Positions 10,162 to 49,092 are shown, counted from the stretch's first letter. The stretch is DNA of 64,000 nt from an uncultured bacterium (GCA_963768835.1 CAVYJB010000002.1:362466-426465), one strand, 5' to 3'. Translations and numbers: made by a program. The notes: generated from the sequence alone by a model not told the origin.

Positions 10162-10203
10162 CCCCCGGGTCAGGAACTTCGGAAGCGAAAGGAGGTGATT
10201 CAC

Positions 10204-10242
10204 AGCCACCCCGCGAGTATTCAACGGGTGGCTTTTATTTAT
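10204..10242 (+). terminator. intrinsic terminator
   Basis: agccaccc cgcgagtattcaac gggtggct tttatttat. Confidence 0.65.
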
Positions 10243-10311
10243 CCCGGACGGATTCGTCGTTCGTCTTTTGCCGCGGAATCTCAGTTGAGGTCCCGCCCCC
10301 TTTGGTTTAGT

Positions 10312-25430: not shown

Positions 25431-28400
25431 ATGAATACGTTCGGAAAGTTCGCAACGGTGGCGGTTGTAGGGTCGCTCCTCGTGCTTGAGGCCGTCGTGC
25501 CCGCCGGCACCGCGCTCGCGTGGCAGGGTCCGACCCTCACCGCGACGCCCAGCGTCACCTCGGTCACCGTTTCGTGGACGACCGCGGCGGACACGTCGGA
25601 GCACTCCGTCCATTACTCGACATTGCAGATCGACGGAACGAATTTCAATTCCGCGACGAACGCGCCCGGCGTTCCGGCGCCGCTTCCGAACCAGGCGCAG
25701 AGCGTCACGGTCAACGGACTCATCTCGAACACCACCTACTACTTTGCATACTGGTCCACCTCCACGGTAGGCGAGGCGAAGTTCTCGACGGCGTCTGCGA
25801 AAACCCTCACGCCGCCGCCTCCGGCGGCTCCGAACCCGGTTTCGAACCTCACCGCGACCGCGAGCGGCACGACCTGCATCGCACTCGCCTGGGACACGCC
25901 CTCCGGAGGCTCCCTTTCCCAGTTTTATCTTAGCTATTCCACGTCCGCGATCACGGGTTCCAACTTTGCATCCGCGACGCCCGCGACGGGTCTTCCGCTC
26001 CCGATCTCCGGGACGCACCAGACCTTCACGCAGTGCGGGCTTTCCGCCGGTACGACCTATTACTTCGGTCTCACGGTGGCGAACACGGTAGGTACCCAGT
26101 CGTCTCTCGTGACTTCTTCGGCGGCCACCCAGTCGGGCGGCGGAGGCGGCGGTGGTGGAGGCGGCGGCGGAGGCCTCCTGCCTCCGGTTGCGGTTACGAG
26201 CCTTACGGCCTCGAGCTCCATCAATTCCGTGGATCTTTCCTGGAAGACTCCTTCGAGCGACAACCTTTCACAGACGAGCGTGTGGTACTCCCTTTCTCCG
26301 ATCACGTCCGGGAACGTCGCGGGCGCGACCGCCGTCACGGGCGTCCCGCTCCCGCGGAAGGGAGAGATCCAGACGGTGCATGTCCCGGGCCTCACCGCGG
26401 GCACGCTGTATTACTTCGCGGTGCAGGAGGTGGATATCGTGGGGCAGACTTCTCCTCTCGCGACCGTTTCCGCGACGACGCTCACGGGCGCGAACCTTTC
26501 GAGCGTCCCTCCGGTCACAAATCTTCTCGCCTCGAGCTCGGTGAACTTTATCAATCTCTCCTGGCTCACCCCGCAGGATGACAATCTCTCGCAGTTCAAT
26601 GTTCGGTACTCGACCTCGAGCATCACCGACGCGAACTTCGCGCAGGCGGCGGTCGCCGCAAACCCTCCGCTCCCGCGGAAGGGCCAGGGGCAGGGAATGC
26701 AGGTCTCGGGCCTGCAGGCGTCCACGCTCTACTTCTTTGCGGTCCAGGTACAGAACATCGTCGGCGCGACCTCGCCGTTGGCGACCGTCTCGACCACAAC
26801 CCTCGCGTCGGGGGGCGGTGGCGGCGGTGGGGGAGGTGGGGGTGGCGGGCTTCTTCCGCCCGGTCCCGCGACGAACCTTGCCATCACAAGCTATGTGGAC
26901 GGCGTGGATCTTTCCTGGCTCACTCCGCAGAACGACAACCTCTCGCAGTTTTCCATCCGTTACTCGACTTCAAGCATCACGGCGGGGAACTTCGCGCAGG
27001 CCGCGGTAGCTCCGAACCCTCCGCTCCCGCGGAAGGGTGAAACCCAGATGCTCCACATTGGGGGGCTCCAGAGTGGCACGACGTATTACTTCGCGATCCA
27101 GATCCAGGACATCGTGGGACAGACCTCGCCGTTGGCGACGATCTCCGGCACGACGCTTTTGAATCTCATCGGCACGCCGCCCGTGACGAATTTCACCGCG
27201 ACGCCCGATGGTACAAACGGCACGACCTGCATCGATCTCGCCTGGGACACCCCGCAGGGGCTGCTCCTCTCGGAGTTCCATCTGCGCTATTCCACGGACG
27301 CCATTACAGATGACGTGAGCTTTACCTCGGGGACTCTGGCGACCGGCGTACCGCTCCCGCGGCACGGCGAGCACCAGACTTTCACGCAGTGCGGGCTTTC
27401 GGCAGGCACCAATTATTCCTTCGGTATTAAGATCGCGAACGTTGTGGGCGTTGAATCGCCCCTCGTGACCGCATCCGCGGCCACCACGTCGGGTGGTGGA
27501 GGCGGTGGCGGCGGGGGAGGTGGAGGCGGCGGTGGAGGCGGAAGTGTCGGTGGGGGCGTCGTGACGGTCGGTGGCGGCGGTGGAGGTGGGGGCGGCGTCT
27601 CCGTGGGCCCCTCCGTGCCGACGAACGGCTCTATCCGCATCAACGGCGGTGCCGCGATCACGTACACGCGCGCTGTGACCCTCACGCTCACCGCGACGGG
27701 GGCGACACAGATGGCTATCTCGAACTCGCCGGTTTTCACGAACACCGTGTGGCTGCCGTTCGCGACGACCATGCCATGGACGCTCACGGACGGTTACGGC
27801 TCGAAGTCGGTCTACGCCCAATTCCGCAATGCGTCAGGGATCGCCTCTCCGGTTGTCGCGGGCATCCTCTATGCGCCGTATCCGGCGACGATCGGAACGG
27901 GAGGCGGCGTCGGGCGCGCCTATGACATCCAAGACGTCAACACGGCAATGGTGAACTGGGGCAAGAGCGGGACGGTCTCTGACCTGAACGGCGATGGCAC
28001 GGTGAACGTGCGGGATATCGCAGTGATGTACGCTGACTGGGCACAGAACCCTCGGCCCATCACGTCGGCGCCGACTCTCGCAACCTTCGTTTCTCCGACC
28101 CCTGGGAACGCGAACGTTCTGCCCGGTGACGAGCTCTCGGTGAACGTAGTGGCGGATCCGAAGGGAAGCCGCGATTACACCGCCGAGGTGGCGCTTCAGT
28201 ATCCGACGGATCTCCTTGAGTTTGAAACCTTCGATTTCCACGGCGGGTGGGTGCCGGTGGTGCGCCCCGAGTTCGACCAGGATAATCGGACGGACGGGAT
28301 CATTCTGAAAACCGGGGCCTACCCGGGTGGGTTCACGCGACCCGTAGCCGTCGGTACCGCCATCTTCCGTGTGAAGCAGCAGGGTGCCGGGACCGTCCGC

Positions 28401-28676
28401 GTGGCGAACGACTACTTCGTTCTGAACGCTTCGAACCAGAATGTTCTTGCACAGGGGTCCAATATGGCACCGCTCGTGGTCTTCGGGACCGTCTCACCCG
28501 CAGGGACCTTCACCGCAAACCTGCTTTCCATCTTCGGTTCGAGTAACTGGGGCGCAGGGCTTGAGGCACTTATTCTCTTCCTCATCCTCTACATCGTTTC
28601 CCGCATTCTTCAGGACCATTACCGGAAGCGCGAGGAACGGCGCACCGCCGCGCTCCAGCCGAAGCTGAGCATCTAA
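25431..28676 (+). CDS. giant surface protein: 5-6 Fn3-like repeats separated by poly-Gly linkers, dockerin-like module, cohesin-like module, C-terminal TM anchor
   Basis: Repeats of ~100 aa (LT..S..VDLSW.TP..DNLSQ..VRYSTS.IT..NFA.A..V...PLPRKG..Q...GL...TYYFA.Q..IVG..SPLATVS.TTL). Dockerin-like DLNGDGTVNVRDIAVMYADW. Cohesin-like block ..NVVADPKGSRDYTAEVALQYPTDLLEF... C-terminal hydrophobic helix plus a basic tail. Confidence 0.65.
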   Translation: MNTFGKFATVAVVGSLLVLEAVVPAGTALAWQGPTLTATPSVTSVTVSWTTAADTSEHSVHYSTLQIDGTNFNSATNAPGVPAPLPNQAQSVTVNGLISNTTYYFAYWSTSTVGEAKFSTASAKTLTPPPPAAPNPVSNLTATASGTTCIALAWDTPSGGSLSQFYLSYSTSAITGSNFASATPATGLPLPISGTHQTFTQCGLSAGTTYYFGLTVANTVGTQSSLVTSSAATQSGGGGGGGGGGGGGLLPPVAVTSLTASSSINSVDLSWKTPSSDNLSQTSVWYSLSPITSGNVAGATAVTGVPLPRKGEIQTVHVPGLTAGTLYYFAVQEVDIVGQTSPLATVSATTLTGANLSSVPPVTNLLASSSVNFINLSWLTPQDDNLSQFNVRYSTSSITDANFAQAAVAANPPLPRKGQGQGMQVSGLQASTLYFFAVQVQNIVGATSPLATVSTTTLASGGGGGGGGGGGGGLLPPGPATNLAITSYVDGVDLSWLTPQNDNLSQFSIRYSTSSITAGNFAQAAVAPNPPLPRKGETQMLHIGGLQSGTTYYFAIQIQDIVGQTSPLATISGTTLLNLIGTPPVTNFTATPDGTNGTTCIDLAWDTPQGLLLSEFHLRYSTDAITDDVSFTSGTLATGVPLPRHGEHQTFTQCGLSAGTNYSFGIKIANVVGVESPLVTASAATTSGGGGGGGGGGGGGGGGGSVGGGVVTVGGGGGGGGGVSVGPSVPTNGSIRINGGAAITYTRAVTLTLTATGATQMAISNSPVFTNTVWLPFATTMPWTLTDGYGSKSVYAQFRNASGIASPVVAGILYAPYPATIGTGGGVGRAYDIQDVNTAMVNWGKSGTVSDLNGDGTVNVRDIAVMYADWAQNPRPITSAPTLATFVSPTPGNANVLPGDELSVNVVADPKGSRDYTAEVALQYPTDLLEFETFDFHGGWVPVVRPEFDQDNRTDGIILKTGAYPGGFTRPVAVGTAIFRVKQQGAGTVRVANDYFVLNASNQNVLAQGSNMAPLVVFGTVSPAGTFTANLLSIFGSSNWGAGLEALILFLILYIVSRILQDHYRKREERRTAALQPKLSI
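26135..26172 (+). repeat. (GGN)n tract encoding poly-Gly linker 1 of the 1081-aa protein
   Basis: Seen directly. Confidence 0.85.
26810..26852 (+). repeat. (GGN)n tract encoding poly-Gly linker 2
   Basis: Seen directly. Confidence 0.85.
27494..27600 (+). repeat. long (GGN)n tract encoding poly-Gly linker 3 (G18, SVGGGVVTVG, G9)
   Basis: Seen directly. Confidence 0.85.
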
Positions 28677-37148: not shown

Positions 37149-37173
37149 CGATATTTCGATCAGATGAGAACCG

Positions 37174-37215
37174 AGGACCTCGTGCCATGCGCACCTGGTC
37201 CTTTTTATTTTTCCA
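37174..37215 (+). terminator. intrinsic terminator
   Basis: aggacc..gtgccatgcgcac..ggtcct ttttatttttcc. Confidence 0.55.
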
Positions 37216-37256
37216 CAGCTACCCCGCGCTTGCCGGATTCAGATACGCGGGGTACA

Positions 37257-38543
37257 ATGCGGACAATGTCGAAACGCGCAAAACTCGTCGCGCTCTTCTT
37301 TCTCCTCGTTGCCGTCTCCATCGTTGCGGCGGCGTTCGATTACCCGCCGGTCTGGCAGAAGTTCGGCGGTTCTCGGCCTTGGACCCTCGGCCTCGATCTC
37401 GCGGGCGGGAGCGTTCTCACGTATGATATCGATCTTTCGAGCGTGGCCGCGGCGGACCGCGATTCCGTGGTGAGCGGTCTCCGGGACGTCATCGAGCGGC
37501 GCGTGAATCTTTTCGGGGTCAGCGAACCTCGCGTGTATACCGAGAATGTCGGCGGCACGAGCCGCCTTGTGGTGGAACTCGCGGGCGTCAAGGACATCTC
37601 CACGGCGGTCGCCCAGATCGGCGCGACGCCGCTCCTCGATTTCCGGGAGCTCCAAGAAGTGGGCACCTCGAGCGTGCAGTTCATCCCCACCGCGCTCACC
37701 GGCCGCTACCTCACGAGCGCGCAGGTGGGGCAAGACACCGTGAGCGGGCGCCCCATGGTGCTTCTGCAGTTCAACGACCAGGGTTCGCAGATTTTCTCAG
37801 ATTTGACGGGCAAGGACATTGGGAAGCGCCTCTGCATTTTCCTTGACAACCAGATTCGCAGCATCGACATCGACTGTCCCGTCATCCAGTCGCAGATCAG
37901 CGGCGGCCGGGCGCAGATCACCGGCGATTTCACCTACGCGGACGTGCAGGCCCTGGTGCAGCGCTTCAATGCCGGCGCGCTCCCGGCCCCCATCAAGCTC
38001 GTGGACCAGCAGACCGTCTCGCCGGACTTCGGAAAGAACTCGCTCGACCGCGCCATCATCGCGGGTCTCATCGGCACCGCCGCCGTGATGCTCTTCATGC
38101 TCATCTACTACCGTTTCCTCGGTATCTTCGCCGTGAGCGCGCTTCTCATGTACATCGCGCTCACCCTCGCGGTTTTCAAGATCGTGCCCGTCACGATGAC
38201 GCTCGCGGGCATCGCGGGATTCGTGCTTTCCATCGGCATGGCCGTCGATGCGAACATCCTTGTCTTCGAGCGCACGAAGGAGGAGCTCCGCCGCGGGCTC
38301 ACCCGCGCGGCCGCCATCGAGGAGGGATTTCGGCGCGCGTGGCCTTCCATCCGGGACTCCAACATCTCGACCATCATCACCTCGGCCGTGCTCTACTACC
38401 TCACCTCGAGCTTCGTGAAGGGCTTCGCGCTCTCGCTGCTCCTAGGCGTTCTCCTCAGCATGTTCTCGGCCATCACGATCACGCGGACGATGCTGCGCCT
38501 GTTCCTCCGCGACCATCCCTCGTCCGCCGCGCCCGCGAAATAA
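37257..38543 (+). CDS. secD: protein translocase subunit SecD
   Basis: N-terminal TM helix, periplasmic domain, then the C-terminal 5-TM block (IIAGLIGTAAVMLFMLIYYRF..GIAGFVLSIGMAVDANILVFER). Adjacent to secF. Confidence 0.8.
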   Translation: MRTMSKRAKLVALFFLLVAVSIVAAAFDYPPVWQKFGGSRPWTLGLDLAGGSVLTYDIDLSSVAAADRDSVVSGLRDVIERRVNLFGVSEPRVYTENVGGTSRLVVELAGVKDISTAVAQIGATPLLDFRELQEVGTSSVQFIPTALTGRYLTSAQVGQDTVSGRPMVLLQFNDQGSQIFSDLTGKDIGKRLCIFLDNQIRSIDIDCPVIQSQISGGRAQITGDFTYADVQALVQRFNAGALPAPIKLVDQQTVSPDFGKNSLDRAIIAGLIGTAAVMLFMLIYYRFLGIFAVSALLMYIALTLAVFKIVPVTMTLAGIAGFVLSIGMAVDANILVFERTKEELRRGLTRAAAIEEGFRRAWPSIRDSNISTIITSAVLYYLTSSFVKGFALSLLLGVLLSMFSAITITRTMLRLFLRDHPSSAAPAK

Positions 38544-38550
38544 CTTTCCC

Positions 38551-39450
38551 ATGAAACACTTCTTCAACGTCATCGGGTATCGGAATTACTTCCTCGGTTT
38601 TTCGGGGACCCTCGTCCTCGCGAGCATCGTGCTCATCATCGTGCTGGGGCTCCGGCCGGGCATCGATCTTACGGGTGGCACCGAGATCCAGGTGCGCATC
38701 GATTCCACAACCGTGGATGAGACCGCAATCGCCGCGGCGCTCCGCCCCGTGCAGGGGCTCGCGGTCGGCGTGACGAAGCAGGGGGACGGCACATTCCTGA
38801 TCCAGCTTCCGCACGTGACCGAGGATGAGCACCAGGCGTATCTCACGGCTCTCAAGCCCCTCGGGACCGTGGACGAGGTGAACTATTCCTCGATCGGCCC
38901 CACGGTGGGGACCGAGCTCCGCACGAAGGCGTTCTGGGCCATCGGCACTGTGCTCGTCGCCATCTCTCTTTACATCGCGTTCGCGTTCCGGAAAGTTTCC
39001 GTGCCGGTGAAGTCCTGGAAGTACGGTGTGGTGACACTCCTCACGCTTTTCCACGACGTTTCCATTCCGGCGGGGCTCATCGCCATCCTCGGGGCATGGA
39101 AGGGGATTCAGGTGGACACCAACTTCATCGTGGCGCTGCTCGTGGTGATGGGGTTCTCGGTCCACGACACTATCGTGGTGTTCGACCGCATCCGGGAGCA
39201 CCTTCTTCGGGGAAACCGTCGGCTGCCCTTGGACCAGGTGGTCAATGACAGCGTGAACGAGACCTTTGCCCGCTCCATCAATACCTCCCTCACCCTTTTC
39301 CTGGTGCTTCTCGCGCTGCTGTTGGTAGGCCCGGGGAGCCTGTTCTACTTCATCCTGACCATGCTCGTGGGGACCATCTTCGGGACCTATTCCTCCATCT
39401 TCGTGGCAAGCCCTCTCCTGTACCTGTGGGGGCGGGAAAAGCCCCGCTAG
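38551..39450 (+). CDS. secF: protein translocase subunit SecF
   Basis: GIDLTGGTEIQ motif. 6-TM C-terminal block (SVHDTIVVFDRIRE). Confidence 0.8.
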   Translation: MKHFFNVIGYRNYFLGFSGTLVLASIVLIIVLGLRPGIDLTGGTEIQVRIDSTTVDETAIAAALRPVQGLAVGVTKQGDGTFLIQLPHVTEDEHQAYLTALKPLGTVDEVNYSSIGPTVGTELRTKAFWAIGTVLVAISLYIAFAFRKVSVPVKSWKYGVVTLLTLFHDVSIPAGLIAILGAWKGIQVDTNFIVALLVVMGFSVHDTIVVFDRIREHLLRGNRRLPLDQVVNDSVNETFARSINTSLTLFLVLLALLLVGPGSLFYFILTMLVGTIFGTYSSIFVASPLLYLWGREKPR

Positions 39451-39492: not shown

Positions 39493-39528
39493 TTGACTTG
39501 AATCTGCTATATATGCTAAAGTATAAAC
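39493..39528 (+). promoter_or_regulatory. promoter-like TTGACT ... TATATATGCTAAAGT abutting ATG 39530 (possible leaderless transcript)
   Basis: Shares a TATATATGCTA core with promoter modules 1 and 3. Confidence 0.35.
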
Positions 39529-39529
39529 C

Positions 39530-40549
39530 ATGGTAAAGAATCTAGACGCCTTCATCGAACACCTTTTCGAGGGTTTCTCCCCGAAGCAGCGGAAAGTCGT
39601 TACGTCCCGGTTCGGCCTGCGGACGGGGCATCGGGCGCCTCTCCAGGAGATCGGGGATGAGCTCGGTATCACGCGGGAGCGGGTCCGCCAGATCGAGGAA
39701 CAGAGCTTGAAGAAGCTCCGGAGCCGCATCCGCGAGGAGGCCGGTGATTTCCTCGAGGTGGTGGCTAAATATCTCGACACGATGGGAGGGATCCGTCGCG
39801 ACGAGACCTTCCTCATGGAGGTCCGGAAGAAATTCCCCGGCTTCGAGAAAGTGAAGCACGCGGATCAGAAGCTCCGGTTCCTGTTCCTCGCGGCCGAGAC
39901 GCCGTTCCACCACAAGGACACGGATGACGTCTACAGTTTTTGGTACACGAGTGACATCTCGAAGAAGCGTCTATTCGATTTCCTGAAGCAGATGCTCCAA
40001 GTGTTCCGCACCGCCAACAAGCAGGAGTTCTTGGAGAAGCGCGCGTACCTCGCGTACGCGAAGGACTTCGCCTCCTCGAACTTCCTTTCGGTCTCAAAGC
40101 ACATCGGCGTGAATATGTTCGGGGACATGGGACTCCGAGTCTGGCCCGAGATCGAGCCGAAGACCATTCGTGACAAGGCGTACCTCGTGCTCCGGAAGCA
40201 CGGGAAGCCCCTCCACTTCGAGGATGTTGCGAAGTACATCGCGCGGTACGGCATTGATCGCGAGGCCGCACACGTGCAGACGGTGCACAACGAACTTATC
40301 AAAGACCCTCGCTTCGTGCTGGTGGGCCGCGGTCTCTACGCGCTCCGCGAGCACGGCTATGAGCCGGGGACGGTGCGCGAGGTGATTGCGCGGCTTCTGA
40401 AGAAGGAAGGCCCAATGGGTGCGGATGAAGTGGTAAAGGAGGTCAACAAGCAGCGCATCCTGAAGCAGAACACCATTCTTCTTAGCCTTCAGAATCGCAA
40501 GTACTTCAAGCGCCTAGATGACGGGCGCTACCACGTCCGGGAAGCGTAG
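39530..40549 (+). CDS. DNA-binding protein with an N-terminal sigma-70 region-4-like HTH
   Basis: LQEIGDELGITRERVRQIEEQSLKKLR is a region-4-type HTH. No region 2 is present. Confidence 0.5.
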   Translation: MVKNLDAFIEHLFEGFSPKQRKVVTSRFGLRTGHRAPLQEIGDELGITRERVRQIEEQSLKKLRSRIREEAGDFLEVVAKYLDTMGGIRRDETFLMEVRKKFPGFEKVKHADQKLRFLFLAAETPFHHKDTDDVYSFWYTSDISKKRLFDFLKQMLQVFRTANKQEFLEKRAYLAYAKDFASSNFLSVSKHIGVNMFGDMGLRVWPEIEPKTIRDKAYLVLRKHGKPLHFEDVAKYIARYGIDREAAHVQTVHNELIKDPRFVLVGRGLYALREHGYEPGTVREVIARLLKKEGPMGADEVVKEVNKQRILKQNTILLSLQNRKYFKRLDDGRYHVREA

Positions 40550-40550
40550 G

Positions 40551-41960
40551 ATGCTCCAGCACATCATAGAGGAGATCACGGATTTCTTCGCCGAACTCTT
40601 CAAGAAAGAAGAGATATGGGTGATTCTTGCGATCGCGGGGATTGCGGGGGTCGTAGCCCGTGTCGTGATTGTGAACCCGGAGGGCCTTGTGGCCCGCCTT
40701 TTGCATATTGTCCTCGCCCTCTGGTGGCTCTGGCTCTTCGCGGTGCTTCTCTATCTCACGGAGCAGCTCTGGCTCCACTGGCGGCAGGAGCTTTTCAAGC
40801 GCGCCATTAAGTTTAGCGTCGTCGAGTTGCGCATGCCGCGGGAGGTCACGAAAAACCCCATTGCGATGGAGCAAGTTCTTCGATCCATCCACGCGCTCCG
40901 GAACTCGGCCGGCGACATCCGGGAAAAATACTGGGAGGGAGAGGTGACGGTCTGGTTCGCGCTCGAGATGGTGAGCTTCGGCGGGCAGGTGCATTTCTAC
41001 GTACGCTGCCAGTCGAGCCGGAAAAGCTTGGTGGAGGCCGCTTTCTTCTCCTATTACCCCGACGTGGAGATCGTGGATGTGGAGGACTACGTGAGCAAGC
41101 TTCCCAAGGATCTTGCCGAGATGCATGAGAAGGGTCTCGACGTGTGGGGGACCGAGATGCTCCTCGCGAAGGATCCTATCTATCCCATCAAGACCTACCC
41201 CAACTTCGAAAGCATGGAGGAGGACAAGCAGTATGACCCGATCTCGGCGTTCCTTGAGATTCTGGGGAAGCTGAAGCCGGAGGAGACGGTCTGCATCCAG
41301 ATTCTCATCGCCCCCGCCGGCCCCGACTGGGCGAAGCCGTGGGAGAAGAAGATCGTGGAGCTCCAGACCCCGAAGACGATGGTGATGGGGACGGGGGACG
41401 AGGCTCGCGACGTCGCCATGGCGCGCTCGCCTGGTCAGACCGACGTGCTGAAGGCTGTGGAGCAGAATGTCTCGAAACCCGCGTTCCTTACGCTTGTCCG
41501 CTTCCTTTATCTTTCCCCGGCGGCCACCTATTCCGACACCTTTGCACGGCGCGGCCTCACGGGTGCATTCAACCAGTACGCGGCCCTCAACCTGAATTCT
41601 TTTAAGCCGAACCGCATGGTGGCCACGCGTGCACAGATCTGGAACTGGCCGCACGCGTATCCGAAAGTCCGTGTGGATTACCGCAAGCAGCGGCTCCTGT
41701 GGAACTATCCCCGTCGGGAGGTCCCGCCGGAGGTGTGGCTTGGACGCCTTTTCACTTCCTATCCGATGAACTTCAACTTCGCTTCGCAGCGGTTCTTTAT
41801 GAACGTGGAAGGTATCGCGACTCTTTTCCATCCGCCGACGGCCGTGGTTCTTACGGCGCCTCACATCCAGCGCGTCGAGAGCAAAAAGGCGGGTCCGCCT
41901 GCGGGCCTCGCCATCTACGGTGAGGAAAAAGAGCTGGGACGGTTCAGCGATACAGACTGA
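40551..41960 (+). CDS. membrane-anchored hypothetical protein (2-3 N-terminal TM helices, large soluble domain)
   Basis: First gene of a three-gene cluster that ends with the VirD4/TraG-like ATPase. Confidence 0.45.
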   Translation: MLQHIIEEITDFFAELFKKEEIWVILAIAGIAGVVARVVIVNPEGLVARLLHIVLALWWLWLFAVLLYLTEQLWLHWRQELFKRAIKFSVVELRMPREVTKNPIAMEQVLRSIHALRNSAGDIREKYWEGEVTVWFALEMVSFGGQVHFYVRCQSSRKSLVEAAFFSYYPDVEIVDVEDYVSKLPKDLAEMHEKGLDVWGTEMLLAKDPIYPIKTYPNFESMEEDKQYDPISAFLEILGKLKPEETVCIQILIAPAGPDWAKPWEKKIVELQTPKTMVMGTGDEARDVAMARSPGQTDVLKAVEQNVSKPAFLTLVRFLYLSPAATYSDTFARRGLTGAFNQYAALNLNSFKPNRMVATRAQIWNWPHAYPKVRVDYRKQRLLWNYPRREVPPEVWLGRLFTSYPMNFNFASQRFFMNVEGIATLFHPPTAVVLTAPHIQRVESKKAGPPAGLAIYGEEKELGRFSDTD

Positions 41961-41962
41961 CC

Positions 41963-42478
41963 ATGGATACCACGAGCACACTTGCGCTCAGCGACACCCT
42001 GCGGGGGCTCTTCGTAACCTTCCGCGCCATTTTCCTGGTCCTGGATATCGGGCTCTTGGCAACTTTCTGCGCGGTTTTTTACCGCGCGCTTGAGACGCGT
42101 CCTCGCTTCGTGTCTCCGAAAGCGAAGGTGCGTGCGAGGCCGAAGGTGGACAACAAAAAGATTCGGGATGAGTGGCACGCGCTTCTCGAGAAGGCGGACC
42201 TGAAGCCCCCAGAATCTTACGTTCTTGCGATTATCGAGGCGGACAAATTCGTAGATGGTCTTTTGAAGCAGCTGGGATTCCAGGGCGAGCACATGGCGGA
42301 CCGCCTCGAGCGCATCGGCGAGATCAATCCCAACCTCAGCACGCTCGATCGCGTGTGGCAGGCCCACCGCATCCGGAACGAGCTCGTGCACACACCCGAC
42401 TTCGAGGTCTCGCACACCGACGCGCACGAGGTCCTCAAGTCCTACGAGGCATTCCTTCGGGAGGCCGAGCTTCTGTAG
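41963..42478 (+). CDS. small membrane-anchored hypothetical protein
   Basis: N-terminal TM helix. Starts 3 nt after the upstream stop. Confidence 0.4.
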   Translation: MDTTSTLALSDTLRGLFVTFRAIFLVLDIGLLATFCAVFYRALETRPRFVSPKAKVRARPKVDNKKIRDEWHALLEKADLKPPESYVLAIIEADKFVDGLLKQLGFQGEHMADRLERIGEINPNLSTLDRVWQAHRIRNELVHTPDFEVSHTDAHEVLKSYEAFLREAELL

Positions 42479-42580
42479 CGCCGCAAGCGCCGCCTGTCCC
42501 CCCCGTACCCGCGCACCGCGCGGGCTTTTTCTACCCCTTCTCCTACAACGATTTTCGTTGTTTAATGGAGGAAAGCTTCT

Positions 42581-44041
42581 ATGCCAGAATCCGGGAAGAT
42601 TCAGATTATTAAGTACGCGCCGCCGCCGCCGGAGCTCCCGGTCCTGGGGCGCGTGGACCCGGCGGAGGTCTCCTTCTTCGGGCGGACGAACTATGTCGCG
42701 GCGCTTGAGGAGAAGCGTTTCATCTTCGGCATGAAGCGCGTCGACCGCCGCCGCCACCTCTATATCATCGGGAAAAGCGGGGTGGGGAAGTCCAAGCTTC
42801 TCGAGCTCCTGATGCGCCAGGATATCGCCTATGGCCACGGCCTCTGTCTCATGGACCCGCACGGCGACGACATCGACGCCATCCTCGATTTCATCCCGGA
42901 GAACCGCATTGACGACGTGTGTCTCATCGACCCCTCCGACGCGGGGTATCCCATCTCTTTCAACCCGCTCGCGAACGTGGACCCCACGTTCAAGCACCAG
43001 CTGACCCAGGGGCTCATCGAGGTGATGGAGAAGCAGTTCGGCGCGAACTGGACGCCGCGGCTCGAGCACGTCTTCCGCTTCACCTGCCTCGCGCTCCTCG
43101 ACTACCCGCACGCCACCATGCGCGGGATGATTTCCATGCTCACGGACCGCAACTACCGGCAGAAGGTGGTCGAGTACATCGAGGACGACATGGTGAAGCG
43201 CTTCTGGGCGATTGAGTTCGCGGACTGGTCCGAGAAGTTCGACACGGACGCCATCATTCCTCTTGTGAACAAACTGGGGCAGTTCCTCTCGAACCCCATG
43301 CTCCGGAACATCTTCGGCCAGAAGGAGAACAAGGTGGACCTCAGGGACCTGATGGCCAAAAAGAAGATTCTTCTCATCAACCTGTCGAAAGGGAAGCTGG
43401 GGGAGGAAAACTCGAGCTTCTTCGGCTCGATGTTCATCACGAAGATCAAGCAAGCGGGGATGGAGCGTGCCTCGCTCCCGGAGGCGCAGCGGAACGATTT
43501 CTATCTCTACGTCGACGAGTTCCATAACCTCGTGACCGAAACGTTCGAGAACCTCCTCTCCGAGGCCCGGAAGTACGGTCTCTGCCTCACAATGGGGCAT
43601 CAGTACATGGGCCAGCTTATCCCTTCGGTCCAGGCGGCGGTCCTAGGGAACGTAGGATCCATCGTCATTTTCCGCGTGGGAGGGGAGGATGCGCGGTTCC
43701 TCGAGGCCGAGATGACCCCGATTTTCAAAGCGAAGGACATGATTAACCTGGGGATGCAGGAGTTTTATATCAAGATGACCATCAACGGCGAGACCCAGGA
43801 TCCCTTCTCGGCAGCTACCCTCAAGGTTTTGCCGCCGGGGTATCCATCGAACCGCGACCGCATCATCGAAGCTTCGCGTCAGAAGTACTCCATCTCGGCG
43901 GATGCGGCGAAGAAACTTATCGCAGAGGAAGAGGCGGGCATCTTCCGGAGCGCGCAGGAGAAGGCCGCCATCACGGGCGGGCGGTCGTCAGAGGGGGGTG
44001 CGGCAAAACCGGAGGACAAGAACCCCGAACCGCTCATCTGA
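42581..44041 (+). CDS. P-loop NTPase, VirD4/TraG (type IV coupling protein)-like or HerA/FtsK-like
   Basis: Walker A YIIGKSGVGKSKL followed by LMDPHGD. Walker B LYVDEFHNL. Arg-finger-like GHQYMGQ region. Confidence 0.55.
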   Translation: MPESGKIQIIKYAPPPPELPVLGRVDPAEVSFFGRTNYVAALEEKRFIFGMKRVDRRRHLYIIGKSGVGKSKLLELLMRQDIAYGHGLCLMDPHGDDIDAILDFIPENRIDDVCLIDPSDAGYPISFNPLANVDPTFKHQLTQGLIEVMEKQFGANWTPRLEHVFRFTCLALLDYPHATMRGMISMLTDRNYRQKVVEYIEDDMVKRFWAIEFADWSEKFDTDAIIPLVNKLGQFLSNPMLRNIFGQKENKVDLRDLMAKKKILLINLSKGKLGEENSSFFGSMFITKIKQAGMERASLPEAQRNDFYLYVDEFHNLVTETFENLLSEARKYGLCLTMGHQYMGQLIPSVQAAVLGNVGSIVIFRVGGEDARFLEAEMTPIFKAKDMINLGMQEFYIKMTINGETQDPFSAATLKVLPPGYPSNRDRIIEASRQKYSISADAAKKLIAEEEAGIFRSAQEKAAITGGRSSEGGAAKPEDKNPEPLI

Positions 44042-44084: not shown

Positions 44085-44390
44085 ATGGTCTTTGTTTATA
44101 CGACGTGCGGGAAGGAGGAGGAGGGGCGAAACCTGAGCAAGCTTGTCATCGGGAAGAAACTAGCTGCGTGCGTGCACATGTGGCCTATTGAATCGTGCTA
44201 CACCTGGGAAGGTACGATGAAGTGCGAGAAGGAATTCGTGGTCCAGCTCACGACTCTGGAGTCGAAACTGCAGCCGATTGAAGATCTCATTCTTTCGAAC
44301 CACACCTACTCGACACCCTTTGTGGGGGCCGTCGACATTCGTCGCATCAACCGCGAGTACAAGGAGTGGATGGCGCAGGTGATCGAGTAA
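44085..44390 (+). CDS. cutA: divalent-cation tolerance protein CutA
   Basis: VFVYTTCGKEEEG..LVIGKKLAACVHMWPIESCYTWEGTMKCEKEFVVQLTT...HTYSTPF matches the CutA1 family. Start coordinate is +-1-2 nt. Confidence 0.65.
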   Translation: MVFVYTTCGKEEEGRNLSKLVIGKKLAACVHMWPIESCYTWEGTMKCEKEFVVQLTTLESKLQPIEDLILSNHTYSTPFVGAVDIRRINREYKEWMAQVIE

Positions 44391-44452: not shown

Positions 44453-46114
44453 ATGGCTGATTCTAAAACAACGATTTGTCAGAACTGTAAGCGGAACTTC
44501 GCCATCGAACCGGACGATTTTTCATTCTACGAGAAAATACAGGTGCCGCCGCCGACGTTCTGCTGGCTCTGCCGCGCCCAGCGGCGTTTGGCGTGGCGTA
44601 ATGAGCGCGCGCTTTATAAACGGAAGAGTAACGCAACCGGGAGAGAGATCTTTTCAGCATTTCCTCCGGAGGCGCCCCACACGGTCTACGAGAACGATAT
44701 CTGGTACTCGGATCAATGGGATGGTATCACCTATGGTCGTGATTATGATTTTTCGAGGCCGTTCTTTGAGCAATTCAATGATTTGCACATTCAAGTCCCA
44801 CAGTTTGCACTCTCAGTCGTTTCCCCGGTGAATAGTGACTACGGGAACAACCTGACTGACGCCAAAAACTGCTACCTTATTTTTAATTGCACTCATATGG
44901 AAGATTGCCTGTATGGGAATGGCACCGTTATGTCGAAAGAGTGCATTGATTTTTCCCATCTTTCCAAGTGTGAACTCTGTTACGAAAGTTTCTGGCTTAC
45001 GCGTTGCCAGCGGACATTCTTCTCGGATTGTTGCGAGGACTGTACAGACGTCTGGTTCTCGCGGGACCTTCGCAACTGCTCGAACTGTTTTGGGTGTGTG
45101 GGACTTCGGAATGCTTCCTATCAATGGTTCAACGAGGGTTTGCAAAAAGATGAGTACGGGCGGCGGTTTCGCGCGTTCCACTCCGGATCATACGCAGAGG
45201 TTGAAAGGCACCGCGCTCAAGCGCTTGATCGGTGGAGTCGCTTCCCGGTGAAGTACATCGAGGGGGCGAAAAATACGGATGTGAGCGGAAACTACATATT
45301 CAATTCGAAGAATGTTAAAAATTCTTTCCTGGTGCGGGAGGGGGAGAATATTAAATTCTCTCAATATCTGCAAGTTCCGCCCAACAAGGATTGCTATGAC
45401 CACAGCACATGGGGCGATGGTAATGAGCTGACGTATGAGGTGTGTCAGGCTGGGTTGGGGACCTACAACATTCGGTTCTGCGTTCTGACGTATCCGAACG
45501 TGAAGAATCTTGAATACTGCATTATGTGCCAATCCTCCTCCGATCTTTTTGGCTGTGTAGGATTACGGAAAAAGCAGTATTGCGTCCTGAACAAACAGTA
45601 TCCCAAAGAGGAGTACGAAGCGCTGGTGTCGAAAATTCGACAACATATGATGGAGGTGCCGTATACCGATCGGAAGGGTAGGGTGTATCGCTACGGCGAG
45701 TTTTTTCCCGTTGAGCAGTCGCCCTATCCCTATAACGAAACTCCAGCCCAGGATTATTTCACGCTCACGAAGGAGCAGGCGCTTGAGGTGGGGTTTGCGT
45801 GGCGCGACCAGCCAACCCGGGAGCGTATCCCGACAGAGACCGAGGCTACGCTTCCTGACGATATTGGCGAGGTTTCAGACGATATTCTGAGTGAAATTGT
45901 TGAATGTGCGCACCGTGGCAAATGCAATGACAACTGTACCGGTGCATTTCGTATTGTACCTGCCGAGCTCGCATTTCATCGGCGAATGAGGGTACCGCTC
46001 CCGCGGCTTTGCCCGAATTGTAGAACGCGCAGCCGACTCGGTGGGGGGACGCGGAAGGAAAAACTTAAGAATAAGGCCCCGCGAAAGCGGGGCCCGTGCT
46101 ATACTCAGAAGTGA
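44453..46114 (+). CDS. Cys-rich repeat protein, paralog B
   Basis: N-terminus CQNCKRNFAIEPDDFSFYEKIQVPPPTFCWLCRAQRRLAWRNERALYKR. C-terminal FRIVPAELAFHRRMRVPLPRLCPNCRTRSRL. Internal CSNCFGCVGLRNAS and CIMCQSSSDLFGCVGLRKKQYCVLNKQY repeats. Homolog of 10312..12087. Confidence 0.6.
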   Translation: MADSKTTICQNCKRNFAIEPDDFSFYEKIQVPPPTFCWLCRAQRRLAWRNERALYKRKSNATGREIFSAFPPEAPHTVYENDIWYSDQWDGITYGRDYDFSRPFFEQFNDLHIQVPQFALSVVSPVNSDYGNNLTDAKNCYLIFNCTHMEDCLYGNGTVMSKECIDFSHLSKCELCYESFWLTRCQRTFFSDCCEDCTDVWFSRDLRNCSNCFGCVGLRNASYQWFNEGLQKDEYGRRFRAFHSGSYAEVERHRAQALDRWSRFPVKYIEGAKNTDVSGNYIFNSKNVKNSFLVREGENIKFSQYLQVPPNKDCYDHSTWGDGNELTYEVCQAGLGTYNIRFCVLTYPNVKNLEYCIMCQSSSDLFGCVGLRKKQYCVLNKQYPKEEYEALVSKIRQHMMEVPYTDRKGRVYRYGEFFPVEQSPYPYNETPAQDYFTLTKEQALEVGFAWRDQPTRERIPTETEATLPDDIGEVSDDILSEIVECAHRGKCNDNCTGAFRIVPAELAFHRRMRVPLPRLCPNCRTRSRLGGGTRKEKLKNKAPRKRGPCYTQK

Positions 46115-47313
46115 TGAAGCGACCGTCCGACATACTAAGCCGATGGCGGAAGGGGAGCGACGAGCGCGTGGTAGTGATCGAGGAACTGGACCGCGGCGTG
46201 GAGGTAACCGAGGCGCGCCTCAAGCCATCCGCAAAGACGCTCGACATCGTCTCCGTGCGTACATGCCCGACCCTGGCGGGGCTCGCGCGGGGGCGGACCC
46301 TCTCATTCTCCGACCGACTGATGGTCGCGGGCGGACCCCGCTCCGCGACGACCGTCGAGGGTGAAGCGGTGCTGCGCCGCGCGCATCCTCAGGAGCCGGT
46401 GGGGGAAGGCGAACTCGACAGTCTCCTCTTTCGCGCGCTCTGGGAACTCCTGAATCGCTATCGGGGCTGGGCCGCGAAAAAGATGGGTGTCACGGACCTT
46501 GATCTCGCGCTCGCGAATGTGGACATCGCGCAGGTGCGCCTCGGCACCCACCAAGCCTTCAACCCTCTGGGGCTCTCCGGAGCTTCCTTTGCAGTGAGGC
46601 TCCGCGTGACGCTCGTCCCGCGCGTCTTACTGCCAGTCTTCGAAAAACTGCAAAGCCGCACGCGCGAACTCGTGGTCCTTGAGGCCGGAGCGACCCTCGC
46701 GCGGATTCTCGGGGATAAACCCCATTTCACCGCGATTGTGGGCGAGGACCAGACCGTCGTTTTCGCGTCCTCAGAGAGCGACTCCACCTTTCAGGGTATC
46801 TATGCGTGGGGGAGTTCCGGGGCGGCACGGTCGCTCGGGGAGGAGCTCGCGATTAGTGAAAAGACCGCAGAAGATCTGGTCCGCCGAGCCCTTCGGGGGG
46901 AAGCTTCCGAACGATTCGAACGGCTGGTGGAGAAACACGCCCGCCAGGAATTCGATCGGTTTGAAGCCCTTCTAGAGCCTCTCTACGGTCGCTCCCGGCA
47001 TCCGAAACTCACAACCTTCTTCCACTTTCGACGGTCCCTGCCGCTTCTTATGGAACGCTTCAGTGAAGGGCATGCGCGCTTTTCAAATTACGGCGAGCGC
47101 CTGACGCTTTCGGGGGTGCGGCTCCACGTACCGCCGATGCTCCGGGAATCCTTCCCGGCCTATCGGCATACCACCCTTGCGCTCCTTCTCCAGCCTGCGG
47201 CCGTTCCCCAGTACGCGTTCCTCAATCAGCTTTTGAAACGGCGCGCGCGATGGCTTATCCCCGCGGCGCCGGCTACGACGCCCGGCGTCCCGCATCGGAC
47301 GGGGATGAACTGA
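46114..47313 (+). CDS. hypothetical protein (start overlaps the upstream stop, ATGA)
   Basis: 399-aa ORF translationally coupled to the Cys-rich gene. An actin-like/PilM-like fold is possible but not demonstrable here. Confidence 0.4.
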   Translation: MKRPSDILSRWRKGSDERVVVIEELDRGVEVTEARLKPSAKTLDIVSVRTCPTLAGLARGRTLSFSDRLMVAGGPRSATTVEGEAVLRRAHPQEPVGEGELDSLLFRALWELLNRYRGWAAKKMGVTDLDLALANVDIAQVRLGTHQAFNPLGLSGASFAVRLRVTLVPRVLLPVFEKLQSRTRELVVLEAGATLARILGDKPHFTAIVGEDQTVVFASSESDSTFQGIYAWGSSGAARSLGEELAISEKTAEDLVRRALRGEASERFERLVEKHARQEFDRFEALLEPLYGRSRHPKLTTFFHFRRSLPLLMERFSEGHARFSNYGERLTLSGVRLHVPPMLRESFPAYRHTTLALLLQPAAVPQYAFLNQLLKRRARWLIPAAPATTPGVPHRTGMN

Positions 47314-47355: not shown

Positions 47356-49092
47356 ATGGCGACTTCTGCGACTAAAAAAATACTCTTGGGCCGTGGCGAC
47401 GATGTAGCGGCGGTCGTAGACCTCGTCATACGCTCCACCGCGGACCAGGTGGTGCTCGTAGTGCCAAAGGGCTCGGTTCTCGGAACCTCGATGCAGAACT
47501 TCAAGGTTCTCGCTCGGGAGGCGATTACCGCACGCAAGACCGTTTCCATTGAATCGTCCGACGAACATATCCGCGAGCTCGCAGGTCTCGCGGATCTTCC
47601 GACGACAAACCCTGTCCGTGTGACTGCGGAGCATGCGTTCTCGGATATTCTTCCCCGTGGAAAATCGACGCGGCTTGCTGTTCCTGCACCGGCCCTCGAA
47701 CCCAAGCCCGAGCCCGCAAGGCCCGTTTCGCCGCCCACACCTGTGGTAGTCTCACCGAAAGCCATTGACTTCTTCGCCGCATCCGCGCCGAAGCCCGAAC
47801 CGAAACCTCGCGTGTCGTTTTTCCGCCGGATCTTCCCGCGGAAAGAGCGGCGGAGCGTTTCTTCATCTGTGCCGCCGGAGCGCATCGCGCCCGCGGCGTC
47901 CAAGCAAGTGCCTTCTCCCGTGGTTTCCTCGCCGAGGAAGCGTCGGAGTCTCCTTCGGCGGGTGGGGACTTTTGGGATTGTTATCGTTGTCCTCGCGGTT
48001 CTGTGGTACGTCGGATTTGTCGTGCTCCCGCAAGCTGTTATCACGATTCAACTTAAGACCACCACCGTGGCCCTCGACCCCACTGTGATTATTTCAAGCG
48101 TGGCGACGGTTGCAGACACGAGTTCGACGCCTCCCGTCGTGCCCGGGGAACTTCTGGTCGCGAAGCGGAACCTCGATATGTCGTTCACGGCCAGCAGTTC
48201 GCAGAATGCGTCGGTCAAGGCCACGGGCCAGCTCATCGTTACGAATTCTTTCAGCGCAGCTCCGCAGATACTCGTTCAGGGCACGCGGTTCGTCTCTCCC
48301 GATGGGCATCTGTTCCGTTTGGATCAGCGGACGGTGATCGCGGGAGAAACCGTCATAAACGGCATCGCCACTTCTTCCCAAACCGTCGTTCAGGTGACGG
48401 CGGACCAGCCCGGAGATGCATGGGATATTGGCCCCTCCACGGGTTGGACGATACCGGGATTTCAGGGCACGCCCCGGTACGCCGCATTCACGGCAGAGTC
48501 TCCGGAGGCCATGATGGGAGGCTTTATCGGGCTCCAAGCGACACCCAGCGCCGCTGATCTCGCGGCGGCGAAGGCGACGGTTGAGGGCGCACTCCGCGAC
48601 TCGCTCCGCCTGCAGATGGGCGTGCTTCTGACCGATCGCTTCAAACTTCTGGATGGCGCTTCGGACTTCAGCGTCACGAACGAAGCCGTACAGCCCGACC
48701 CGAAGGATCCCTCGAAGTTCAGCGTTTTCGCGGATGGCCAGGCGCGCAGTTTCGTGTTCGATGAAAGTGTGCTGAAGGATGTTCTTGCCGCGCGGGCGGG
48801 GAGTTCGCTCGACCCCACGCTTCGTGTGCGATCCGTTGACATCACGTACGGCACGTCGACGCCGGACTTTGACGCGGGAACGTTCACGATCAGCATCACC
48901 GGGACGGCGGTCTTCCAGCCGCCCGTGGACCCGCAGGCCCTCACGCAGGAACTTCTCGGAAAAGACACCAACGCTTTCCGGGCCGCGATGCTCAATGTCC
49001 CGGGTCTCACCACCGCGCATATCGACCTCTCGCCCTTCTGGGTCCTTAATATTCCCCGGGATCCCGCCCGGGTCCACCTGACCATCCAATAG
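47356..49092 (+). CDS. bitopic membrane protein: cytoplasmic N-domain, Pro/Ser-rich linker, TM helix, large extracytoplasmic domain
   Basis: 578-aa ORF. Single TM (VGTFGIVIVVLAVLWYVGFVVL) after a Pro-rich region. Confidence 0.45.
   Translation: MATSATKKILLGRGDDVAAVVDLVIRSTADQVVLVVPKGSVLGTSMQNFKVLAREAITARKTVSIESSDEHIRELAGLADLPTTNPVRVTAEHAFSDILPRGKSTRLAVPAPALEPKPEPARPVSPPTPVVVSPKAIDFFAASAPKPEPKPRVSFFRRIFPRKERRSVSSSVPPERIAPAASKQVPSPVVSSPRKRRSLLRRVGTFGIVIVVLAVLWYVGFVVLPQAVITIQLKTTTVALDPTVIISSVATVADTSSTPPVVPGELLVAKRNLDMSFTASSSQNASVKATGQLIVTNSFSAAPQILVQGTRFVSPDGHLFRLDQRTVIAGETVINGIATSSQTVVQVTADQPGDAWDIGPSTGWTIPGFQGTPRYAAFTAESPEAMMGGFIGLQATPSAADLAAAKATVEGALRDSLRLQMGVLLTDRFKLLDGASDFSVTNEAVQPDPKDPSKFSVFADGQARSFVFDESVLKDVLAARAGSSLDPTLRVRSVDITYGTSTPDFDAGTFTISITGTAVFQPPVDPQALTQELLGKDTNAFRAAMLNVPGLTTAHIDLSPFWVLNIPRDPARVHLTIQ

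Follow-up and report, generated by a model that had tools for sequence, protein, structure and literature searches.

Coupling proteins of the VirD4/TrwB type, such as TrwB of plasmid R388 (1E9R) and Cagβ, the VirD4 of H. pylori (8DOL), combine a P-loop core, whose Walker A and Walker B motifs lie about 240 residues apart, with a membrane tether in the form of a two-helix hairpin, and a further trait of the group is a genomic association with a relaxase and/or mating-pair formation (Mpf) genes (VirB4, VirB6). In VirB4 (TrwK of R388), an N-domain is followed by a RecA-like ATPase. Here, we analyse a cluster of three genes at positions 40551-44041 of a 64,000-nucleotide stretch of DNA from an uncultured bacterium (GCA_963768835.1, CAVYJB010000002.1:362466-426465; the whole stretch is called the window below), in which a P-loop core of the coupling-protein kind and a two-helix hairpin are encoded by separate genes. 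The hairpin belongs to a 469-residue protein of the Pfam family DUF8128 and the core to a 486-residue predicted ATPase, and the two proteins correspond to the N-terminal and C-terminal parts of what is elsewhere a single chain.

The window is a stretch of a chromosome of Patescibacteria (candidate phyla radiation, CPR; Paceibacteria-like) with a GC content of about 58%, and homologues of the three cluster proteins occur in metagenome-assembled genomes of Jorgensen-, Brenner-, Lipton- and Wolfebacteria, Paceibacteria and 'Minisyncoccia'. Patescibacteria account for a very large part of the diversity of bacteria; they live in dependence on host cells, and their type IV secretion system (T4SS) is essential. 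According to Quinonero-Coronel et al. 2025 (PMC12102498), the patescibacterial T4SS/virB4 locus lies near dnaA/dnaN/rnpA, usually without an adjacent coupling protein, and only 148 of 5,713 patescibacterial coupling-protein homologues are encoded near virB4. The authors consider exaptation of these homologues possible; they also report that in ordinary systems, too, a coupling-protein gene commonly lies far from virB4, and that TrsD proteins, which resemble the N-terminal part of VirB4, are abundant in Patescibacteria. The T4SS cluster of S. epibionticum is reported to have no recognisable coupling protein (PMC10633639).

The window ATPase fits the homologues counted far from virB4 in PMC12102498, being VirD4-like and chromosomal, with no virB4 in the window. 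Unlike the VirD4/TrwB proteins, it is vertically inherited on a chromosome and very highly conserved, has no recognised relaxase or Mpf gene nearby in the 64 kb, and leaves the membrane hairpin to a separate polypeptide, DUF8128; a domain of about 380 residues with an alpha/beta fold, missing from canonical VirD4, lies between hairpin and motor. The order of N-domain and RecA-like ATPase is common to VirB4 and the window pair, and TrsD is a free-standing N-domain-like protein as DUF8128 is; however, the ATPase half obtains higher scores with models of coupling proteins than with those of VirB4. The published virB4/TrsD locus was considered as an identity for the cluster and rejected, since that locus lies near dnaA/dnaN/rnpA and the ATPase is closer to coupling-protein models. 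Already known are the counted gene class, the NCBI label of the ATPase ('type IV secretion system DNA-binding domain-containing protein') and DUF8128 as a Pfam family. The sections of PMC12102498 considered here count such genes and do not mention a DUF8128 partner, the split, the synteny with secDF and a sigma-70 region 4/HARE-HTH (sigma-r4/HARE-HTH) gene, or a HEPN-like insert. Our literature search found no account of the DUF8128-ATPase pairing, the two-halves relation, a VirB4-like fold of the N-terminal half, the secDF/sigma-r4-HARE neighbourhood or the HEPN-like insert, no papers on 'DUF8128', and nothing for CPR together with HARE-HTH.

DUF8128 and the ATPase are the two halves of a single-chain protein family

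Open reading frame (ORF) calls place the three genes on the + strand at 40551-41960 (469 residues), 41963-42478 (171 residues) and 42581-44041 (486 residues), as proposed in an earlier note made from this DNA alone, and their starts agree with the N-termini of homologues. In the first gene, the N-termini of 30 homologues favour the ATG at 40551 over the one upstream at 40518, and the ATPase agrees with the homologue consensus at its N-terminus. The earlier note had described all three genes as tightly linked or translationally coupled. Only the first two nearly abut, with a gap of 2 nt, and translational coupling does not hold for the ATPase gene, which lies 102 nt 3' of the 171-residue gene, beyond a hairpin, and has its own GGAGG site. 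Homologues of the 469-residue protein carry PF26449 (DUF8128) as a precomputed Pfam label; a Pfam scan of the window protein itself gave no match, and it contains no Walker motifs.

Four independent comparisons agree on the relation between the first and the third protein. In tblastn searches of 72,556 plasmids (7.3 Gb), the ATPase matched the C-terminal part of longer proteins encoded in conjugation-type clusters. An 812-residue relative in Embleya adjoins PrgI, a VirB4-like ATPase, a replication-relaxation gene and NlpC/P60; Bacillaceae 'DUF87' proteins of about 830-880 residues adjoin replication-relaxation, TcpE and VirB4-like genes; a 991-residue Herpetosiphon protein is encoded two genes 3' of a VirB4-like gene; and the relative on Sulfolobus pING1 has 1042 residues. 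DUF8128 gave only three matches in the same 7.3 Gb, all of them to the N-terminal region of the same Bacillaceae proteins. Profile alignment (hhalign) with the fused Bacillaceae protein paired residues 131-258 of DUF8128 with its residues 52-163 (96%, E 2.7e-9), and residues 11-432 of the ATPase with its residues 305-732 (99.7%, E 2e-25). A single PHROG profile, phrog_5156 (824 positions), likewise covers both halves, with matches to DUF8128 at 78-203 (2e-8) and to the ATPase at 396-816 (6e-55). Among viral proteins, gp156 of Bacillus phage G (825 residues) is the best match to the DUF8128 fold (Foldseek E 1e-16); residues 17-167 of gp156 align to DUF8128 by profile and its C-terminal half is homologous to the ATPase by sequence (E 9e-37). 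The core of DUF8128 that corresponds to the N-terminal ~170 residues of the single-chain relatives comprises residues 91-275 (40821-41375, + strand), and the plasmid matches of DUF8128 are due to this core alone. The comparison of DUF8128 with the long Herpetosiphon and Sulfolobus ATPases by hhalign gave nothing beyond motif-level co-linearity, and that with the Embleya protein was weak.

Thus, phrog_5156, gp156 and the Bacillaceae plasmid proteins, e.g., the 833-residue protein of pBM69 (WP_003349917.1), show co-linear homology to DUF8128 and then to the ATPase, at an identity of only about 25-29% to the window proteins. These relatives are plasmid- or phage-borne single polypeptides of about 825-880 residues, with genes that adjoin replication-relaxation (relaxase-family), TcpE and VirB4-like genes; in the window the halves are two chromosomal ORFs with a third gene between them. 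No N-terminal transmembrane (TM) helices are visible in the alignment of the fused proteins, and therefore the membrane hairpin was added in the patescibacterial form. DUF8128 is a detached N-terminal domain of the ATPase family, extended by a two-helix membrane hairpin, and not an independent membrane protein; the description of the 469-residue protein in the earlier note as a separate membrane partner has to be replaced accordingly. Sequence like that of the single linker in the fused protein (RLKMRSTPLPKELK) occurs twice in the split form, in the C-terminal tail of DUF8128 (RVESKKAGPPAGLAIYG) and at the ATPase N-terminus (IIKYAPPPPELPVLG), and the phrog_5156 coordinates imply about 40 overlapping positions between the two halves. 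Read directly from the sequences, this likeness and this overlap hint at a partial duplication at the split point.

The DUF8128 family comprises 2,611 clusters at 50% identity with E <= 1e-3 (810 with E <= 1e-30). Representatives of the best 150 of the 2,611 clusters are 152-588 residues long, so none of them is long enough for the fused form. No relatives of DUF8128 were found in 2.9 million viral contigs. In phage G (L172 1196-5338; loci in our collection are designated by L numbers), gp155 ('VirB-like', 549 residues) adjoins gp156 and both are DUF8128-like by fold. This jumbo phage thus carries a pair from the ATPase family, and SPO1-like phages have weaker homologues (gp27.4). On the B. 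subtilis plasmid CP025942 (L090 4117-6752), the normally fused gene of about 870 codons is annotated as ORFs of 171 and 696 residues; this two-ORF form is probably a frameshift and its position differs from that of the patescibacterial split.

DUF8128 carries the membrane hairpin and a predicted VirB4-like domain

The earlier note had called the first two proteins membrane-anchored, and a Kyte-Doolittle scan identified two hydrophobic segments in DUF8128 (residues 22-40 and 50-68) and one in the 171-residue protein. The DUF8128 hairpin (40614-40754, + strand) consists of TM1 (22-40), a loop of about 9 residues and TM2 (50-68), and the AlphaFold2 (AF2) model has helices at 20-41 and 58-85. Since basic residues follow TM2, the large domain is predicted to be cytoplasmic. 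In the model (mean confidence, pLDDT, 82) the helical hairpin is followed by an alpha/beta domain of antiparallel sheets. When this model was compared with the PDB by Foldseek, the 12 best matches were all TrwK/VirB4 chains of R388 (E 5e-5 to 1e-3), with generic ferredoxin-like folds next. From the architecture, together with the non-RecA secondary-structure pattern of the model, we infer that DUF8128 may resemble the N-terminal domain of VirB4.

The ATPase is of the predicted coupling type

The motifs recognised in the earlier note are present in the ATPase: Walker A GKSGVGKS at residues 64-71 (nt 42770-42793), a DPHGD box at residues 92-96 (nt 42854-42868) and DEFHNL within the Walker B sequence YLYVDEFHNL at residues 308-317 (nt 43502-43531). 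Both termini are conserved, IIKYAPPPPELP at the N-terminal and PEPLI at the C-terminal end. Four Pfam families passed their cutoffs, namely TrwB_AAD_bind (PF10412; 36.3 bits against 20.5, spanning residues 56-366), T4SS-DNA_transf (PF02534; 20.8 against 20.1), TraG-D_C (PF12696; 23.5 against 22) and DUF87 (24.8 against 23.2), and TrwB entries are the only significant solved relatives by sequence. Among NCBIfam models, coupling-protein TraD (2e-10) and CD1115 (5e-9) were ranked before the VirB4-type TrbE (5e-5) and CD1110 (0.007). Fold comparison of the AF2 model gave Cagβ first and HerA next; the model has low confidence (pLDDT 54) and was built from a shallow alignment with all members 78-85% identical, and these matches serve as corroboration only. 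The same low-confidence model has a helical stretch at 135-260; in VirD4/TrwB proteins an all-alpha domain is inserted in the nucleotide-binding domain. The coupling-type assignment of the earlier note, as opposed to an unrelated P-loop family, is borne out by the Pfam matches and by TrwB and Cagβ/HerA as the best solved relatives.

The Kyte-Doolittle scan detected no hydrophobic segment, and hence no membrane anchor, in the first 340 residues of the ATPase. Because the Pfam scores lie above cutoff and those of the curated NCBIfam models far below, we regard it as a superfamily member outside any curated orthologue group. Its sequence identifies it as a P-loop ATPase of the VirD4/TrwB superfamily (FtsK-HerA clade) that is predicted to be soluble.

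Two variations were noted among relatives of the ATPase. In distant lineages it has about 600 residues owing to a low-complexity, Glu/Lys/Pro-rich C-terminal extension of about 180 residues (L100 7552-9552 and about 30 other distant loci), which in L100 ends in a CxxC...CxxC zinc ribbon; the window protein has a short tail with the conserved PEPLI. The adjacent ATPases of close relatives fall into two identity classes, about 80% and 52-63%, which may represent two subtypes or faster-evolving lineages (L014, L028, L035, L041, L044, L048, L049, L058, L060 and L061).

The DUF8128-ATPase pair is conserved next to secDF

Conservation of the arrangement was assessed in two sets of loci, both chosen through DUF8128, so the linkage figures hold given its presence. 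The close set was found with a DUF8128 alignment in 80 GTDB species representatives, and its loci share ancestry and are not independent; for the distant set, 80 metagenome loci were retrieved in which the DUF8128 protein has 24-32% identity to that of the window. The order in the close set is almost invariant: secD, secF, sigma-r4/HARE-HTH, DUF8128, the small gene and the ATPase gene. There, the ATPase gene lies within 1.5 kb 3' of DUF8128 in 66 of the 73 loci with enough downstream sequence, and the median gap of 558 nt equals the size of the small gene. In the distant set, 36 of 47 loci have an ATPase gene (43-50% identical) directly after DUF8128, the median gap being 121 nt, and secD-secF, usually together with the sigma-r4/HARE-HTH gene, still lie 5' of DUF8128. 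At a coverage of at least 60%, the sigma-r4/HARE-HTH gene precedes DUF8128 in 73 of 82 close and 33 of 80 distant loci. The partner linkage anticipated in the earlier note thus recurs in relatives, and an arrangement repeated in more than 100 related loci is not due to chance. Since adjacency of DUF8128 and the ATPase is kept in both sets and the small gene is not, the core unit is the DUF8128-ATPase pair.

Median identities to the window proteins (close and distant set, respectively) were 80% and 46% for the ATPase, 64% and 50.5% for SecD, 59.5% and 42.5% for SecF, 55% and 33% for the sigma-r4/HARE-HTH protein, and 53% and 27% for DUF8128; the 171-residue protein reached 41.5% in the close set and was present in only 2 distant loci. 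By these medians, conservation of the ATPase exceeds that of SecD in the close set and falls below it in the distant one. The locus is bounded downstream by infA-rpsM-rpsK. The GC content of 36-44 kb is 0.59-0.61, within the window range of 0.48-0.65, and neither tRNA genes nor Rfam matches were found in the window by tRNA and Rfam scans. From its fixed place between secDF and infA-rpsM-rpsK, the lack of a tRNA gene, the ordinary GC content and the lack of viral relatives it follows that the pair is not a mobile element; it is inherited vertically and constrained as strongly as housekeeping genes are.

No Pfam-recognisable T4SS or relaxase gene was found among the ten largest other ORFs of the window, in agreement with the absence of relaxase and VirB4 genes noticed earlier, and none was found among the homologues of window genes mapped in the ~160 related loci. 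The 64-kb window contains no second large P-loop ATPase and no ATPase paralogue. The earlier note suggested that an orphan, stand-alone ATPase with membrane partners could be a minimal device, a conclusion for which 64 kb is too small a window, the virB4 locus having been described near dnaA/dnaN (PMC12102498).

The loci in which DUF8128 has no ATPase gene nearby are L020, L040, L076, L077, L078 and L082 in the close set and L110, L113, L120, L121, L127, L148, L150, L151, L154 and L164 in the distant set; DUF8128 often still follows secDF in these loci. The genes next to DUF8128 in L110 resemble, as judged by eye from the translations, those for a tRNA-dihydrouridine synthase, DnaG primase, RpoD and PilM.

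The 171-residue protein is a probable lineage-specific accessory

The protein encoded between the two halves has one TM helix (residues 22-40), a strongly basic juxtamembrane stretch and a helical domain of about 110 residues, which should be cytoplasmic because of that basic segment. In 30 aligned sequences the family is invariant for an E/D in the first helix, for GEHMADRL and for W-x-x-H-R-x-R-N-x-L-V-H. The last of these includes RNxLVH (residues 138-143, nt 42374-42391), with R138, N139, L141 and H143 invariant, which we take to be a canonical HEPN-type Rx4H motif. With HEPN domains it has in common the Rx4H motif at the end of a predicted helix, the conserved acidic first helix and a length of about 110 residues; it may differ from them in being anchored by one N-terminal TM helix. 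No member of the family exceeded a Pfam threshold, sub-threshold matches being HEPN_Swt1 in 3 of the 30 members (best 0.023) and Hypoth_Ymh in 2, and a profile search of the PDB gave no match. The gene is present in all 82 close loci but in only 2 of 80 distant ones, and in those two it lies upstream of DUF8128. The earlier note had counted this protein among the dedicated membrane partners; its distribution and sequence features indicate instead that it does not belong to the core and is probably a membrane-tethered, lineage-specific accessory with a HEPN-like fold. A role as VirB3/PrgI analogue was also considered and dropped in view of the single TM helix, the 110-residue HEPN-like domain and its absence from most lineages.

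A proposed two-piece coupling-type motor, probably serving a T4SS

We consider it somewhat better than an even chance that the cluster encodes a two-piece coupling-type motor of the VirD4/TrwB superfamily, split from a fused form and probably serving a T4SS. DUF8128 would tether the ATPase to the cytoplasmic face of the membrane, where the ATPase, by analogy with TrwB and other coupling proteins, may assemble as a ring. Driven by ATP hydrolysis, it would then pass a polymer substrate, either nucleic acid or unfolded protein, on to a membrane channel. The likeliest channel would be the VirB4/VirB6/VirB2 type IV system of Patescibacteria, whose genes lie elsewhere, close to the origin of replication; it is the most economical choice because the plasmid systems with fused relatives are of the same monoderm (MPF-FATA-like) lineage. 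In Jorgensen-, Lipton-, Brenner- and Wolfebacteria-type lineages, the HEPN-like 171-residue protein would have been inserted between the halves as an accessory.

Several points count against this proposal. The interaction of the halves, ring formation, ATPase activity and the substrate are all predicted. The best scores of the ATPase against curated NCBIfam coupling-protein models are 35-40 bits, with cutoffs of 250-650. The TM-scores between DUF8128 and TrwK/VirB4 (0.27-0.36) are modest, with the aligned part of VirB4 unspecified; a sequence-profile search of the PDB with DUF8128 gave chance-level matches only, and hhalign comparison with the VirB4-like proteins of pBM69 and Herpetosiphon gave no sequence support. 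DUF8128 occurs without a nearby ATPase in 6 of 73 close and 10 of 47 distant loci, and its association with secDF outlasts that with the ATPase. In the window a terminator-like hairpin separates the DUF8128 and 171-residue genes from the ATPase gene. Finally, in S. epibionticum the T4SS is essential and the coupling-protein homologue, which may or may not be an orthologue of the window ATPase, is reported as non-essential (PMC12102498). It is this non-essential homologue, the ATPase-less loci and the longer-lasting secDF link that keep our confidence only a little above even.

A rival reading, in line with the minimal device of the earlier note, is a stand-alone housekeeping translocase that works without a type IV system. 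The pair, alone or with SecDF or a ComEC competence channel, could for example import or export nucleic acid, or extract or insert proteins. The small fraction of homologues near virB4 and the exaptation allowed by the authors (PMC12102498), the dispensable homologue of S. epibionticum, the housekeeping-level conservation, the secD-secF synteny that lasts in distant lineages even without an adjacent ATPase (e.g., in L110) and the lack of any T4SS gene found in 64 kb are all consistent with it. However, the relatives that can be traced outside Patescibacteria are all encoded in clusters of the conjugation type, with VirB4-like, PrgI, TcpE and relaxase-family genes, and two helices joined by a loop of about 9 residues form no channel by themselves; coupling genes are commonly far from virB4 in ordinary systems too (PMC12102498), and in reduced genomes a conserved gene order may reflect history rather than function. 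We therefore treat this translocase as a serious competitor, though a rather unlikely one. Those conjugation-type relatives also speak against an FtsK-like motor that pumps chromosomal DNA in division or segregation, which we regard as decidedly improbable: the DUF87/HerA matches do place the ATPase in the FtsK-HerA clade, its conservation is very high, its neighbourhood is of the housekeeping kind and a DNA-binding-type protein (sigma-r4 plus HARE-HTH) is encoded directly upstream, but the nearest relatives are not of the division type, FtsK_SpoIIIE is absent among the Pfam matches listed for the ATPase at E <= 0.1, and at least one patescibacterium, TM7x, has an annotated ftsK of its own (PMC10768705).

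An anti-phage defence module, in which a HerA-like ATPase would act with a HEPN nuclease effector and a membrane component, is suggested by the Rx4H motif of the 171-residue protein and by weak PADLOC matches of the ATPase (mad8 4e-11, HerA 9e-5). It is very improbable, since the HEPN-like gene is missing in 78 of 80 distant loci while the DUF8128-ATPase pair persists, neither DUF8128 nor the 171-residue protein has a PADLOC match, and a fixed housekeeping place in more than 100 genomes with about 80% identity is unlike variable defence islands. The fused homologues on plasmids and in phages might also suggest that the locus is the remnant of an integrated conjugative element or prophage without host function. 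Synteny effectively refutes this, as the same secDF-adjacent position is found in the 80 species representatives and in distant metagenome loci; in addition, strong purifying selection acts on the two ORFs, which are intact, tRNA genes are absent from the window, the GC content of 36-44 kb is within the window range, none of the proteins scanned showed a recombinase or integrase domain, and no relatives were found in viral contigs.

A more specific possibility, which we rate as improbable, is nucleic-acid import: the split ATPase would pull host-derived RNA or DNA from the T4SS pilus into the cell, in Paceibacteria-type lineages the HEPN-like protein would cleave this polymer where it enters, and the sigma-r4/HARE-HTH protein would be a nucleic-acid-binding adaptor. 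If true, this would explain a motor as conserved as core secretion genes in organisms unable to make nucleotides, and also why competence genes are dispensable for growth (PMC11665869; bioRxiv 10.64898/2026.06.21.733656).

The proposed two-piece coupling-type motor is not a new kind of machine; it gives concrete predictions for an enigmatic essential secretion system. A class of distant coupling-protein homologues is now provided with an anatomy, in which a motor half and a membrane-anchored N-terminal half derive from one protein, and which also takes in the conserved neighbours (secDF, sigma-r4/HARE-HTH) and the lineage-specific HEPN-like accessory. The split form predicts a specific protein-protein pair and so makes the coupling-protein question testable, and Pfam DUF8128 is assigned a context.

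Flanking genes and other features of the window

Upstream of the cluster, secD (ORF at 37164-38543, its true start probably downstream of the ORF start at 37164) and secF (38551-39450), both on the + strand, were identified from Pfam matches of the L001 orthologues and from synteny in the close and distant loci. The sigma-r4/HARE-HTH gene (39530-40549, + strand) encodes 339 residues with Sigma-70 region 4 at residues 16-64 (2.7e-15) and HARE-HTH at 212-274 (1.5e-12); a promoter-like site lies 5' of it at 39493-39522, and its stop is 1 nt before the DUF8128 start at 40551. The protein may serve the system as a DNA-binding adaptor, or it may be unrelated to it, a factor similar to RNA polymerase delta.

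The terminator-like hairpin in the spacer before the ATPase gene (42508-42524, + strand) reads CCCGCGC-ACC-GCGCGGG followed by CTTTTTC, i.e., 7 G-C pairs and a T run, and folds with a minimum free energy of -30.7 kcal/mol (z -2.2). It is probably local to the window genome, because the 102-nt spacer is absent in, e.g., L001.

Directly 3' of the ATPase gene are cutA (44085-44390; Pfam CutA1, 7e-21) and then a Cys-rich gene (44453-46114), 42% identical to a paralogue at 10195-12087, an order that the earlier note had read correctly. The Cys-rich family of about 550 residues (also L001 9684-16669) is without Pfam or NCBIfam match; 36 of the 82 close loci have a copy 3' of the ATPase gene, and relatives have up to four in tandem between the ATPase gene and cutA. 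Two uncharacterised genes, 46096-47313 (405 residues) and 47356-49092 (578 residues, one TM helix), recur 3' of the cluster in several relatives, and the 578-residue gene directly follows the small gene in the ATPase-less loci L020, L076, L077 and L082. Elsewhere in the window, 3313-5976 and 25431-28676 encode two very large proteins with Big_7 and fibronectin-III/purple-acid-phosphatase-N repeats, which are likely surface proteins or adhesins.

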